A stretch of 64,000 bases of DNA from contig CM000436.1 of NCBI GenBank assembly GCA_000165345.1, forward strand, positions 640,001-704,000, written 5' to 3'. Shown piece after piece: positions 1,087 through 49,104 of the stretch. The position numbers were made by a program, and so were the translations under genes. Below the pieces are notes generated by a model that made no database searches, was not told the DNA's origin, and saw nothing but the letters and a program-made list of their open reading frames with translations. Position 1 is the stretch's first letter, and each line of letters begins with the position of its first letter.

Positions 1087-2494
1087 AATTTTTTTTTCTT
1101 TTTTTAAAGTCAAAGACCCTTTTAATATGTAATTTAGCTTAAAAGGTTTTGTATTGGAATAAATATTATAAAGCTATTTGGAAGAAGTAATGATTAATTA
1201 TCTAGTGTCTCCTTGTAGCAAGAAACACAAATTTAAATCTTCCAAAGACTTTGCAAAACCAAACAACAATTTAGTTGTGGAGATTTTCTTTTAATTGTTT
1301 TGTTTATAACTTTATTTATCACCCTCACTGTTTTGGCGCGTGAACCTGGCTTCAATTCAAAGTTCAAATGATTTTTGACTTAAAAATGATCAGGCTATTA
1401 TCACAGGTAAAAGCTAAATATAAGCTCTATATGAGAAAACAATCATTTAAATTCTTTCTTGATTTTATGAACCTTTGTTGATCTTTCTTTGAAATGTATT
1501 TTTTTCCCACCCAATTAACATTGAAAATGCATGCAAGTTTTACCGCCAAATGTTTGAACAAAAAGAATTATTGCTTGTATTTGATGGTGAAATAGACTGA
1601 ATTTGAATTAAATAAATGGGTAAATACAGATAAAATTTAGGATTTTCTTAAGATTTTCTAGAAATTAGAATAGATGATCGCTTAATATTTGTTCTGAGGT
1701 AAATGGCATTGAGAGAGATTGATCAAGAGTGAAGTTTAGTTTATCGGCTGTTTATCTGAAAGCAGGTTGGTAATACACGAAATTGAATGCTAAATGGGAA
1801 CAAATGCGTTAATTTTTCAACTTATGGCTAATAAATAACTAATGGAGTTTCAGAAATTTTAATAGATATTGTGAATTGCACGGTTTTGTTGTTTTCCATT
1901 TCCAAATTAAAAACTAATAATTAAATAAAGTAGAAACTATGGATGAAAATTGATTGCCATTGTTTAGTTTTAATGGCGACATTAGATAGGGAGAAAAAAA
2001 AAAATCATTTTTTTTTAGGGGAAGAGGGGATAATAATAGTTTTATTTCATTTCTTTAAAGCCAACAAAGTCATTCACAAACGGAAAAAAAACTCCAGAAT
2101 TATCACAAAATCATATTTTATCTTTTAAATTAATTTACGCATTGTGCCAAATATTGCATGCAAGAATATGACAATCTTTTTTTCATGTCTACTATTGCTC
2201 TCCTTACTGACTCTATCTCTATCTTTTCTTGTTATCCACTCCTCTTTCATACAATCTATCAATAAGGTTTATATTTAACTGCTATAGTTTTAAAAAAATA
2301 TATATTAATAAATTATTAAGGCACACGGTTTTGGCGGTAAGTTGATATATTTTCTAATTTTTATGACAAACCAATAGAAATAAATAATACAAGATTCGAA
2401 AACTTGGAGTGATAGAATTTATTCATTTTATAAATAAAATAGGTTAATATCCAAGTTTTGTATCTTAATTGGTCCATACAGGAATTAGAAGAAA

Positions 2495-3419
2495 ATGGAG
2501 TTATCACTATGTTTCGAGAACCAAATGATTATTAAGGTAAGTAATTATATATAAGGATTAATAATAGAATAACTGAATACTAAATGATTAGCTACCTTCT
2601 TCAGTAATGGAGAAACTTAGAGAGAGAAAACATGGAGAAGTAGTTGGCTCTCTTAAATATGATGAAGATGGAAAGGTATGTTACTTTTTATATATGAGAA
2701 AAAACTGTAACAATTGTTAATTTTGTCTTATATCCTTGAAATTACTCTAATATCTATAGAGGGAGTGGGAAATTCTAAACTCAAAATTTTCAGAAACTAA
2801 AACAGGTAATACAGAAACTGATTCATTAAATCAAAATGAAAAAAGTGGATATTTGTTTATGAATACACCAGATAAACCAGATAAAATTTCAATGTACCCT
2901 TCCAAAATTCATACATTAGTTAGAAAAGGGAACTTTGTAACCGATGATATTAGACGTAGAATTAAAGAGAAAACTAAGAAGTCATCCACCATTGAGGATA
3001 CTAAGAGAATCGTTGGAGCAATGTACGAATCAAACTCTCAACCATTCATTTATTATGATATTAAGTCTGACCAGATGTCAGACGAGCCCAGAAATAGCTC
3101 GCTTAGCTCAATATATAAGAAGAAGCCGGCCACATCAAGTAGTCAATCTTCTGCTAATATAGAAGGTAATAATTATTCTTCAGGATTAAGCTCGAGTGCA
3201 AACAATTTAAATAGTAGTTCATTAGAAAGCTTAAAGGAGAATATTTTCAAAATATTCGAAGAAAAAGGAAGCGAAGGAGTTTCACTCAAGGAAATTGAGG
3301 ATAAAACAATGAAGCCCAAACATATTCTCAAGAAAATTGTTGAAGAAATTGCAGTTCAAGCAGGTAGAGGCGGAAGAAGGCATATATGGTATTTGAAACC
3401 ACAATTTATTGGTAAATAA
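2495..3419 (+). CDS. TFIIF beta (RAP30)-like winged-helix protein. The main ORF is 2859..3419; a putative 3-exon model is join(2495..2536, 2592..2675, 2805..3419)
   Basis: The C-terminus ENIFKIFEEKGSEGVSLKEIEDKTMKPKHILKKIVEEIAVQAGRGGRRHIWYLKPQF follows the RAP30 winged-helix pattern (FEKHQYYNLKDL...KQPVVYLKEILKEIGVQN...WELKPEY). Upstream, two in-frame candidate introns are 2537-2591 (GTAAGT...TTAG) and 2676-2804 (GTATGT...AACAG). They extend the frame to ATG 2495 or 2607. Confidence is good for the main ORF and low for the upstream exons. Confidence 0.45.
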
Positions 3420-3819
3420 TTCAAAAAAATTTTGTTTTATCATCACTTTTAAAAAATTTCTATTTTTAAAAATAGTATTTCTATTCCTAAACATTTTTTC
3501 CTGCATGCGATGTTTTTTCATTGGTGTTTGGCGCCATGTGTGGGGAAATTGAACACCTATGCAAATTTGCGTTGTCAGAATGCAAAATTGCAAATTTACC
3601 GGCGCACATAGGAAATAAATTATCGGGTTTTATTAAATATAAATAAAAAAAGTTAATTGTTTCAAAATTTCGGAATACTTGACCAAAATTTATTTCCTTA
3701 CAAAATGTTTAGAAGATGGCTGTTTTAAAAAAAGTATAATAAACAAAAGAATTAATTATTGCAACAAATTCTTCATAGTGAAAAACTGAATGGTGATGTA
3801 ATTTTCATTGGTTTCACTG

Positions 3820-47290: not shown

Positions 47291-47358
47291 CCATGAAAAA
47301 AATGTAAATATTCAAAAGAAAGAAATTAACAATTCACAAACGAGAGTAAGCAAACGCA

Positions 47359-48696
47359 CTAATACTTATCTACGATAGAAACAAATTCAAACGATGAGGC
47401 AAACTTTCGCACTGTTTGCCTGATATTCTCTATTGCTGGAGAGGCCTTAATATTAGAAACAAACTCTGCAAGAGTCTCCCCATCCTTTTGAATATCTCGA
47501 GCAGTAGTTAAAACTTCTACAATTATCCTTGAAACGAATTTGAAATCATCCAACTCCATCCCTCTGCTCGCAAGGGCTGCAGTTCCAAGTCTGACGCCAC
47601 TGCAATTCATAGTTCTCCCATCACAAGGTAAAGAACTTCTACTTGTTGAAATTTCGCATACTTCTAGTGCTTTCTCAGCCTTAGCCCCAGAAATGTTCAA
47701 TGATCTTGTATCTATTAGAATTTTGTGGGAATCAGTTCCATTTGTAAGAATCTTGATTCCAGACTCCTCGAGCAATTTGCAAAGCAATTGAGAGCTTTCT
47801 AGCACTCTACTTGCATATTTAACCCAAGAAGCAGAAACTACTTGTTTCAGTTGGAAACAAAGGGCTGCAACTTGGTTGAAATGAATACTAGACTGAATTT
47901 CTTTAGAAACTGACTCATCAATCTTAACTCTGATCTTGGACTCTACGTCCTTTCTGTAAAATATTATTGCTGACCTTGGTCCTCTTAATGTCTTGTGAGA
48001 CGTTGTTGTAATGAAATCTGCGTAGTCTTTGGGTGACGGGTACTTCCCTGCAACCACCAAACCAGAGTAGTGAGCGATATCTACCATCAGGTAGGCCTTC
48101 ACTTTGTCGCAGATATCCCTAAACCTCTTAAAGTTGATCATTCTAGGATACCCACTAGCTCCTGCTATTATCATCTTTGGTCTAAATAGTATTGCATTTT
48201 CTTCCAACTTATCGTAATCTATCACTCCTTCTAAATCAGTTACATAAGGGAGTGACTCAAAATAGTGAGATGAACAGTTAACTCTCTTCAAATTTGTATA
48301 GTGTCCGTGAGTCAGGTGGCCTCCATGTTGTAATGACAATCCCATTATTCTATCATTAGGTTTTAATACTGCATTTAATACTGCAAAATTTGCAGGAGAG
48401 CCACTATGAGGCTTTACATTAGCACCCCATACTTCAGGATCTAGTCCATATGCTTTTAAGGCTCTTTCATTTGTGAGCTCTAATAGTTCTTGTGCAGAAG
48501 TTGAGTTTAATTCCATATTTTTATCATTATTAAACATTGAGAATGTACTTGACAAGCTGTCCAAGACTCCCTTCGATACAAAGTTTTCGGATGCTATCAT
48601 TTCTAGTCCATTAATCTGTCTATCATATTCTTCATTGATTAGCTCATACATAATGGGATCCAGCTCTTTTAATGATTTTTCCTGTAAAAATACCAT
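47359..48696 (-). CDS. SHMT: Serine hydroxymethyltransferase (SHMT) with the PLP site intact but the N-terminal YSEGYPGxRYYGG loop diverged
   Basis: ATG at 48696. Motifs present: IASENF, HSGSPANFAV, HGGHLTHG, MVDIAHYSGL, TTTSHKTLRGPRSAIIFYRK, GVRLGTAALASRG. Where the KYSEGYPGKRYYGG loop should be, the sequence is DSLSSTFSMFNNDKNMELNST. Confidence 0.8.
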   Translation of the reverse strand: MVFLQEKSLKELDPIMYELINEEYDRQINGLEMIASENFVSKGVLDSLSSTFSMFNNDKNMELNSTSAQELLELTNERALKAYGLDPEVWGANVKPHSGSPANFAVLNAVLKPNDRIMGLSLQHGGHLTHGHYTNLKRVNCSSHYFESLPYVTDLEGVIDYDKLEENAILFRPKMIIAGASGYPRMINFKRFRDICDKVKAYLMVDIAHYSGLVVAGKYPSPKDYADFITTTSHKTLRGPRSAIIFYRKDVESKIRVKIDESVSKEIQSSIHFNQVAALCFQLKQVVSASWVKYASRVLESSQLLCKLLEESGIKILTNGTDSHKILIDTRSLNISGAKAEKALEVCEISTSRSSLPCDGRTMNCSGVRLGTAALASRGMELDDFKFVSRIIVEVLTTARDIQKDGETLAEFVSNIKASPAIENIRQTVRKFASSFEFVSIVDKY

Positions 48697-49104
48697 TTCT
48701 TAAGTGATTATTTATTACAGTTCTGTATTACACGGTCTTTATATTCCTAAATCTTTAGTAGCTTCACAAATTTTTATTTCTAGCGTTTAAACAAAGCTAT
48801 ATTCGAATTTCAACTTTGTTTTTTATATTTTGGTAATTGTGTTCAATTATTAAACTTTTTTGTCCAAATAAAGTACATGCGCCATGTGTGGGTAATTTAT
48901 CAGTAAATCGTTGAATGAATGCTAACCCAGAAATTTTTCTAATTTATAAAAATATTATTCTCTAAAAATTACTATGATCTCTGAATAAATTTCGCTCTTT
49001 AGATTTCTCAAGATAACTAGGACAGTACTAATCTACCAAAGATAGAATTTTATTACAAATCAATTATTATTGTCCTACTAGAAAAACCGGAAATGTATTG
49101 AAAA

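Follow-up and report, generated by a model that had tools for sequence, protein, structure and literature searches.

INTRODUCTION

What are the GC-rich boxes with a GGCG[GC][GC] core that recur in the intergenic spacers of a 64-kb stretch of Cryptosporidium parvum chromosome 8 (hereafter the window; CP029787.1:631652-695651), and which factor would read them? The original prediction, made from the letters of this DNA, described them as E2F/DP-like elements and took the DNA to come from Cryptosporidium. The origin proved right: the SHMT open reading frame (ORF) at 43824-45140(-) is identical to EAK89612.1 of C. parvum Iowa II, the proteins of the window have exact coding matches on C. parvum records of chromosome size, and the stretch as a whole is located on assemblies of chromosome 8.

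As reported, a motif of this kind was first seen in the non-coding DNA of chromosome 6 (Bankier et al. 2003, as cited in PMC3734150), and the E2F-like Motif 3 (DTTGSCGCCH) and Motif 4 (TTTGGCGGGAAV) were the most over-represented upstream motifs of C. parvum (Oberstaller, Joseph & Kissinger 2013, PMC3734150). For 161 of 200 co-expression clusters, an upstream over-representation of E2F-like motifs was described (PMC4117751), and the clusters that carry them can peak in expression at any time point (PMC3734150). Moreover, E2F is the most prominent motif in the peaks of a sporozoite assay for transposase-accessible chromatin with sequencing (ATAC-seq), which place it in open chromatin at 5' ends, and also at polycistron 5' ends (Xiao et al. 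2025, bioRxiv 10.1101/2025.01.17.633476), and it is the top motif upstream of long non-coding RNAs (lncRNAs) (Li et al. 2021, PMC7840661). Among apicomplexan genera, only Cryptosporidium is reported to retain E2F/DP (PMC3734150, PMC4117751, PMC12246861, bioRxiv 10.1101/2025.01.17.633476). [quoted passage not shown] In protein-binding microarrays, the AP2 domains of C. parvum are reported to bind the motifs TGCAT, CACACA and G-box; E2F counts there as a non-AP2 motif (PMC4117751). According to a 2025 review (PMC12246861), most regulatory components of Cryptosporidium are without functional validation.

The boxes of the window are this published motif family (motifs 3 and 4 of Oberstaller 2013), and finding them is a rediscovery of a known element. 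The organism and the words (TTGGCGCCA and TTTGGCGGGAAA) are the same, as are the upstream, intergenic position, the occurrence on either strand and the rank as most abundant upstream motif; nothing substantive differs. What is added here is a clean per-gene map of 64 kb of chromosome 8, the orthologous persistence of individual boxes, a corrected assignment at the SHMT genes and a possible class of box-less promoters. For the most abundant upstream element of what is reported as the only apicomplexan genus with E2F/DP, knowing which gene carries which box helps promoter design and the understanding of parasite regulation. With a probability of about 75%, we read the boxes as binding sites for parasite E2F/DP heterodimers that act as general promoter elements, often in both directions.

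RESULTS

Enrichment of the boxes in intergenic spacers

The gene map was built from long ORFs beginning with ATG and then refined with the annotated gene models of an identical C. parvum assembly and a model of CKS1. On this map, spacers account for 13.15 kb (26.7% GC) and coding sequence for 50.85 kb (34.4% GC), and the window as a whole has 32.8% GC. The spacers are thus 73% AT, and the value of more than 80% in the original prediction was too high. All 21 intervals that it listed hold the sequence given for them, and all 21 are intergenic on the annotated map. Every listed site is correct, while at least two boxes had been overlooked, at 1539-1550(-) and, as a weak match, at ~14269-14277(-) (Table 1).

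Counted on both strands, GGCG[GC][GC] occurs 20 times in the window, with 17 sites in the spacers (1.29 per kb) and three in coding sequence (0.06 per kb; at 6290, 6404 and 57412). The density is 22-fold higher in the spacers, although these are poorer in GC. As a null model, we used 1000 dinucleotide-preserving shuffles in which spacers and coding sequence were shuffled separately. For the spacers, 1.2 ± 1.1 sites were expected against the 17 observed, and the highest count in any shuffle was 7; for coding sequence, 4.2 ± 1.8 were expected against the three observed. The spacers are therefore approximately 14-fold enriched, and coding sequence is merely at the chance level. The comparison of coding and intergenic word counts that had been proposed as a check, run here in the window, accordingly gave unequal densities under shuffle control. 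The claimed near absence of the box from coding sequence stands as a count but not as a depletion, and active avoidance of the motif in coding sequence is unsupported.

Related words behave in the same manner. TTGGCGSS has 14 matches against 0.79 expected, all 14 of them intergenic, and none of 100 shuffles reached this number. The canonical E2F word TTTSSCGC has nine intergenic sites and one genic site, SGCGCS has eight and none, and GGCGGG has nine and two. Moreover, in an unbiased k-mer scan that scored spacer words against an order-1 Markov model, the top words were TTGGCG at k=6 (18 observed, 1.65 expected), GGCGCCA at k=7 (10 observed, 0.12 expected) and GGCGGGAA/TTGGCGGG at k=8. The words GGCGGGAA, TTGGCGGG and TTGGCGCC each occur six times against 0.05 expected. 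E2F-like words hold ranks 1-3 at k=6, and at k=7 and 8 they fill the top four or five places; next in order are GCATGCA (the known AP2_1 motif) and the ACCGGTA/TACCGGTA palindrome.

Two forms of the box and their likeness to E2F sites

Alignment of all intergenic GGCG occurrences on their core gave the consensus TTTGGCG(C/G)(C/G)AAA, which matches the canonical TTTSSCGC, whereas the 56 genic occurrences of GGCG have no such flanking context. The box takes two forms. The palindromic form, TTGGCGCCAA, is found at 3527, 25448, 34629, 34655, 43779 and 46520, and the asymmetric form, TTTGGCGGGAAA, at 8914, 12791, 17831, 20719, 22801, 24673, 29665, 30131 and 40212. Both forms have counterparts among classical E2F sites. 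The E2F site of DHFR is the palindrome TTTCGCGCCAAA. The Arabidopsis sites TTTCCCGCC and TTTGGCGGG are of the TTTSSCGC type (cited in PMC3734150). In common with the E2F/DP sites of animals and plants, the boxes have a CG-rich core of 6 bp flanked by a T-run and, on the opposite side, an A-run, asymmetric and palindromic variants, a promoter-proximal position and no obligate orientation. The boxes also match Motif 3 and Motif 4 of PMC3734150, and the original placement in the E2F-like upstream element class is upheld.

Both orientations relative to the downstream gene are present, as had been predicted, in addition to the palindromes. Among the asymmetric boxes, six of eight read GGCGGG in the sense direction, a bias that is not significant. 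The two orientations and the palindromic form fit a binding site in duplex DNA rather than an RNA signal.

Additionally, boxes occur as pairs 12-26 bp apart at four places (20716/20728, 29648/29665, 34629/34655 and 40212/40225). Similar pairs recur in Cryptosporidium ubiquitum with a spacing of 14-18 bp (locus positions 9792/9808, 4744/4758 and 21696/21714). The recurrence of pairs suggests cooperative or double occupancy. The presence of typically one or two boxes per putative regulatory region, with many of these regions bidirectional, is also a likeness to the E2F motif of ATAC-seq peaks, polycistrons and lncRNAs (Xiao 2025; PMC7840661).

Distribution over spacers and genes

Of the 25 genes whose 5' end the window includes, 20 carry one or more boxes in the spacer at that end. 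Every box lies in a spacer with at least one 5' gene end, and five of the six divergent spacers contain boxes. The distance from a box to the nearest downstream ATG is about 57-554 bp (median 228 bp).

That prediction had also named individual genes, namely, CKS1, a kinase, a secreted family, a mucin and SHMT. CKS1 does carry a box. The kinase is the SAM-domain kinase with the box at 3527, the secreted family consists of three paralogous signal-peptide genes with one box each, and the mucin is the 1006-amino-acid (aa) gene with a Sushi domain and a threonine run, whose box is at 30131. In contrast, the 5' spacers of the two SHMT genes contain no box. The SHMT assignment is wrong because the box at 43779 lies just 3' of the first copy (SHMT-1) and 53 bp 5' of the 405-aa gene.

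Table 1. Boxes of the window, the genes that they adjoin and their counterparts in other Cryptosporidium species
Element	Position	Strand	Gene context	Orthologous box
TTTTGGCGCGTG	1331..1342	+	247 bp upstream of RHD3/Sey1 GTPase ATG (1086, - strand)	CGCGCCAAAA ~240 bp upstream in C. ubiquitum
TTTGGCGGTAAA	1539..1550	-	Same divergent spacer as 1331 box	
GTTTTGGCGGTAA	2328..2340	+	~155 bp upstream of annotated TFIIF-beta ATG (2495)	CCGCCAAA 161 bp upstream of TFIIF-beta ortholog in C. ubiquitum
TTTGGCGCCA, palindromic	3527..3536		G-box (TGTGTGGGG) directly after; SAM-kinase ATG (3820) 285 bp downstream	GGCGCCAAA in C. ubiquitum; kinase distance identical, 285 bp in both species
TGGGCGGGAAAA	8914..8925	+	Divergent spacer between 913-aa kinase/HEAT gene (-) and formin gene (+)	C. 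ubiquitum and C. felis
TTTGGCGGGAAA	12791..12802	+	52-55 bp upstream of SAP/LOTUS gene ATG (12854)	45-47 bp upstream in C. ubiquitum and C. felis (45-55 bp over three species); present in C. ryanae
TTTTGGCGAT, weak	~14269-14277	-		
TTTGGCGCGC	14377..14386		236 bp upstream of 594-aa gene	CGCGCCAAAT kept in C. ubiquitum and C. felis
TGGCGGGAAC	17831..17840	+	~495 bp upstream of 247-aa gene (- strand)	Aligned block TTCCCGCCAA in 4 species
GGCGGGAAAA	20719..20728	-	Second GGCGG at 20716; ~552 bp upstream of 579-aa secreted paralog	Aligned block in C. ubiquitum, C. canis and C. bovis
GGGCGGGAA	22801..22809	-	~330 bp upstream of 549-aa secreted paralog	Aligned block in 4 species
TTTGGCGGGAAA	24673..24684	+	108 bp upstream of 516-aa secreted paralog (ATG 24566)	Box in same spacer of 5 other species
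TGGCGCCA, palindromic	25448..25455		88 bp upstream of CKS1 ATG (25360, -); 155 bp past helicase stop	GGCGCCAA in same spacer of C. ubiquitum and C. felis
TTTTGGCGGTG + ATTTGGCGGGG, pair	29648..29675	-	17 bp apart; 198-214 bp upstream of Mtr4 helicase ATG (29452)	Kept as pair in C. ubiquitum; single boxes in C. canis and C. felis
TTTTTGGCGGG	30131..30141	+	165 bp upstream of 1006-aa signal-peptide/Sushi/Thr-run gene	CCCGCCAA 163-167 bp upstream in 4 species
Two palindromic GGCGCC cores	34629..34660		26 bp apart; divergent spacer between 265-aa gene (-) and 1366-aa gene (annotated ATG 34741)	TTGGCGCCA kept in C. canis and C. felis
TTGGCGGGAT + CTGGCGGT, pair	40212..40232	+	13 bp apart; ~300-310 bp upstream of Hrd1/synoviolin RING gene	
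TTGGCGCCA, palindromic	43779..43787		53 bp upstream of 405-aa gene ATG (43726, -); 3' of SHMT-1, not the SHMT-1 promoter	
TTTGGCGCCAA, palindromic	46520..46530		Divergent spacer between 165-aa gene (-) and 139-aa gene (+)	
TTTTGCGGGAAC, variant without first G of GGCG	46697..46708	+	164 bp upstream of 139-aa gene; GCATGCA adjoins at 46681	

Conservation between Cryptosporidium species

The window was compared with two syntenic blocks from other Cryptosporidium species, for which the Mtr4 helicase and 913-aa kinase orthologs served as anchors. With a loose box definition, boxes are several-fold denser in spacers than in genes in every species compared (e.g., ~2.0 per kb in the spacers of C. ubiquitum against 0.1-0.25 in its genes, and 0.95 against 0 in C. 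andersoni). The fraction of orthologous spacers with a box is 12/12 in C. ubiquitum, 11/12 in C. felis and 7/7 in C. canis, and 4/7 in C. bovis, 4/5 in C. ryanae and approximately 4/7 in C. andersoni. None of the convergent spacers of the orthologous loci on the Mtr4 side, two per locus, contains a box.

The distance from box to ATG is often within 10 bp of the same value across species (Table 1). At the 1006-aa gene, the box changes form in C. bovis, where TTGGCGCC stands at 143 bp instead of CCCGCCAA. When six spacers from five species were aligned with MAFFT, identity to C. parvum was 63% in the box columns and 52% in random windows of the same width from the same spacers (P = 0.024). This test is conservative because the random-window background includes CKS1 exons. 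The boxes are thus conserved at orthologous positions above the spacer background, as is required of a functional cis-element. In particular, the conserved boxes of the SAP gene (-55), CKS1 (-88) and the 1006-aa gene (-165) are good candidates for binding and mutagenesis work.

DISCUSSION

Proposed mechanism and alternative explanations

In the mechanism that we propose, the promoter-bearing spacers of this compact genome carry an E2F-like cis-element in two forms, palindromic (TTGGCGCCAA) and asymmetric (TTTGGCGGGAAA). Winged-helix E2F/DP heterodimers would recognize the CG-rich core together with its T and A flanks in either orientation. Their binding would mark or open the promoter, in divergent spacers often from one site for both genes, and E2F/DP would then drive transcription, mainly in asexual stages. 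Our analysis shows the enrichment of the boxes, their confinement to promoter-bearing spacers, their agreement with the E2F consensus, their independence of orientation and their conservation between species. We infer E2F/DP as the binding factor from the literature, which is likewise the source for the encoded E2F and DP proteins and for the location of the motif in open chromatin.

Several observations weigh against this reading. The boxes are not specific to cell-cycle genes, unlike classical E2F regulons: besides CKS1, 19 genes of unrelated function carry them, including the kinase, the formin gene, the secreted paralogs, Mtr4 and Hrd1 of endoplasmic reticulum-associated degradation, so that no preference for cell-cycle or DNA-replication genes is seen. 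Whereas the sites of animals and plants mark such a regulon, those of C. parvum stand upstream of most genes. There is also no fixed or preferred distance to the ATG in the window, and boxes are no closer to it than chance would place them (mean 239 bp, against 281 bp for random positions in the same spacers; P = 0.16). The six convergent spacers of the window are free of boxes, but they total only 676 bp, in which about 0.9 to 1.6 sites are expected, and the contrast is therefore not significant on its own. Moreover, the boxes are less regular in the lineages of C. bovis/C. ryanae and C. andersoni, and we found no study of E2F/DP binding to the boxes in the literature from 2024 onward.

Some of these points are shared by an alternative that we regard as unlikely, though worth serious attention, in which the boxes are real promoter elements bound by another factor, such as a GC-recognizing zinc-finger or Myb-type protein, or act as nucleosome-excluding GC islands in AT-rich spacers, their likeness to E2F sites being coincidental. 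The link of E2F/DP to the boxes is drawn by inference (2025 review PMC12246861), the near-universal presence of the motif here (20/25 genes) is atypical of a classical E2F regulon, and the motif-bearing clusters peak at no particular time (PMC3734150). A coincidence would, however, have to extend past the core into the T-run and A-run flanks and cover both classical E2F forms, TTTSSCGC and the DHFR-like palindrome, and it would have to fall in the only apicomplexan genus reported to retain E2F/DP, where the boxes are the most over-represented upstream motif. In addition, the conservation of the exact word across species argues against a purely compositional role. For these reasons we prefer binding by E2F/DP. 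A role for the boxes as 3'-end, termination or boundary signals of the upstream gene, or as RNA-level motifs of untranslated regions, would agree with the tandem spacers in which a box is closer to the upstream stop than to the downstream ATG (e.g., 20719, 95 bp from the stop; 3527, 108 bp; 43779, 38 bp). We consider it very improbable because boxes occur in divergent spacers, which contain no 3' ends and carry boxes in five of six cases, as palindromes and in two orientations; they are missing from the convergent spacers (6/6 in the window and two per orthologous locus), and by ATAC-seq the motif lies where chromatin at 5' ends is open (bioRxiv 10.1101/2025.01.17.633476). Finally, the idea that a scan for GC-rich words in AT-rich spacers produced the boxes by chance or composition can draw only on the post hoc choice of the pattern in the original prediction. 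It is refuted by the shuffles, none of which reached the observed count (0/1000, and 0/100 for TTGGCGSS), by the first place of E2F-like words in the unbiased scan and by the conservation of the sites at orthologous positions in other species.

A broader form of the E2F/DP reading can be offered tentatively, with somewhat worse than even odds. In it, the E2F-like box would be the default promoter-marking element of intestinal-clade Cryptosporidium and not the site of a regulon, E2F/DP would be a general initiation or chromatin-opening factor, and the genes without a box would form a separate class run by G-box and AP2_1 sites together with the TACCGGTA palindrome. It is based on the presence of boxes at ~80% of genes, on the nearly fixed ATG distances over C. 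parvum, C. ubiquitum, C. canis and C. felis, and on the frequent pairing. The default-element part has already been suggested in print (Oberstaller 2013; Xiao 2025); what would be new is the conservation of each site between species, together with the class of box-less genes.

Genes without a box and other spacer words

The five genes without a box in their 5' spacer are SHMT-1, SHMT-2 and the 878-aa, 242-aa and 204-aa genes. Their spacers carry G-box-like (CCCCACA/TGTGGG), AP2_1-like (CATGCA) or TACCGGTA words instead, and four box-less promoters have no 7- or 8-mer in common.

The TACCGGTA/ACCGGTA family is the third-ranked word family of the spacers, after the E2F-like and AP2_1 words. The palindrome has four intergenic copies against 0.04 expected, and ACCGGTA has eight against 0.27. 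ACCGGT cores are located at 8986, 29687, 51840 and 53470, in the context ATACCGGTA. Two copies of TACCGGTA lie in box-less promoters, namely, in the divergent spacer of the 878-aa and 242-aa genes and in the spacer upstream of the 204-aa gene. The palindrome has no match among the named motif families in the passages of the C. parvum motif literature consulted here.

The promoters of the kinase (3531-3544) and, in the opposite strand, of SHMT-2 (~48877-48890) share a 14-mer, GCGCCATGTGTGGG. Its E2F half-site runs without a gap into a G-box (TGTGGGG), and it may be a composite element.

Promoter-type words also cluster at 6288-6410 inside the 913-aa kinase/HEAT gene (-), where TTCCCGCC, GCATGCGCATGCA and TGGCGGGA fall within 125 bp of coding sequence. 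We considered this cluster, in which two boxes flank GCATGCGCATGCA, as a conserved internal or antisense promoter and rejected it, as the boxes are absent from the orthologs in C. ubiquitum, C. felis and C. ryanae. The coding boxes at 6290 and 6404 are conserved in no ortholog examined and therefore fit the chance expectation. The cluster is probably due to chance, or else a lineage-specific internal or antisense promoter.

Gene content of the window

Pfam scans of 20 ORFs of the window identified the RHD3/Sey1 GTPase, TFIIF-beta, the SAM-domain kinase, the kinase/HEAT protein, formin, the SAP/LOTUS protein, the Mtr4 helicase, the Sushi-domain protein (with a signal peptide and a threonine run), Hrd1/synoviolin and the two SHMT genes. 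For the remaining ORFs, Pfam families were taken by look-up, which added an Atg10-like protein and a zf-Nse protein. Neither the scans of the 20 ORFs nor the families listed for the rest include an E2F or DP protein encoded within the window.

Two spacers, 38895-40528 (1.6 kb) and 17337-18429 (1.1 kb), are unusually long for this genome and have no annotated gene. A search of them for hidden RNA genes gave no Rfam family and no tRNA match; they could hold unannotated small genes or lncRNAs.

The three secreted paralogs (579, 549 and 516 aa) form a tandem array at 18430-24566(-). They are diverged, with 25-31% identity, and Pfam gave no match for them; every one has a conserved box of its own, and the synteny of the array is kept in all six species examined.

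CKS1 (24873-25360, -) lies between the helicase and the 516-aa gene and contains several introns, which is unusual in an intron-poor genome. One annotated C. parvum model of CKS1 (91 aa, 24873-25195) begins downstream of the ATG at 25360, from which the protein would start with MVNYPDD; the start at 25360 fits the C. canis model. CKS1 and a neighbouring gene are annotated as one fused gene in C. ubiquitum and C. felis.

The two SHMT genes, at 43824-45140(-) and 47359-48696(-), are 2.2 kb apart, with two small genes between them, and the first copy is named mitochondrial by one source.

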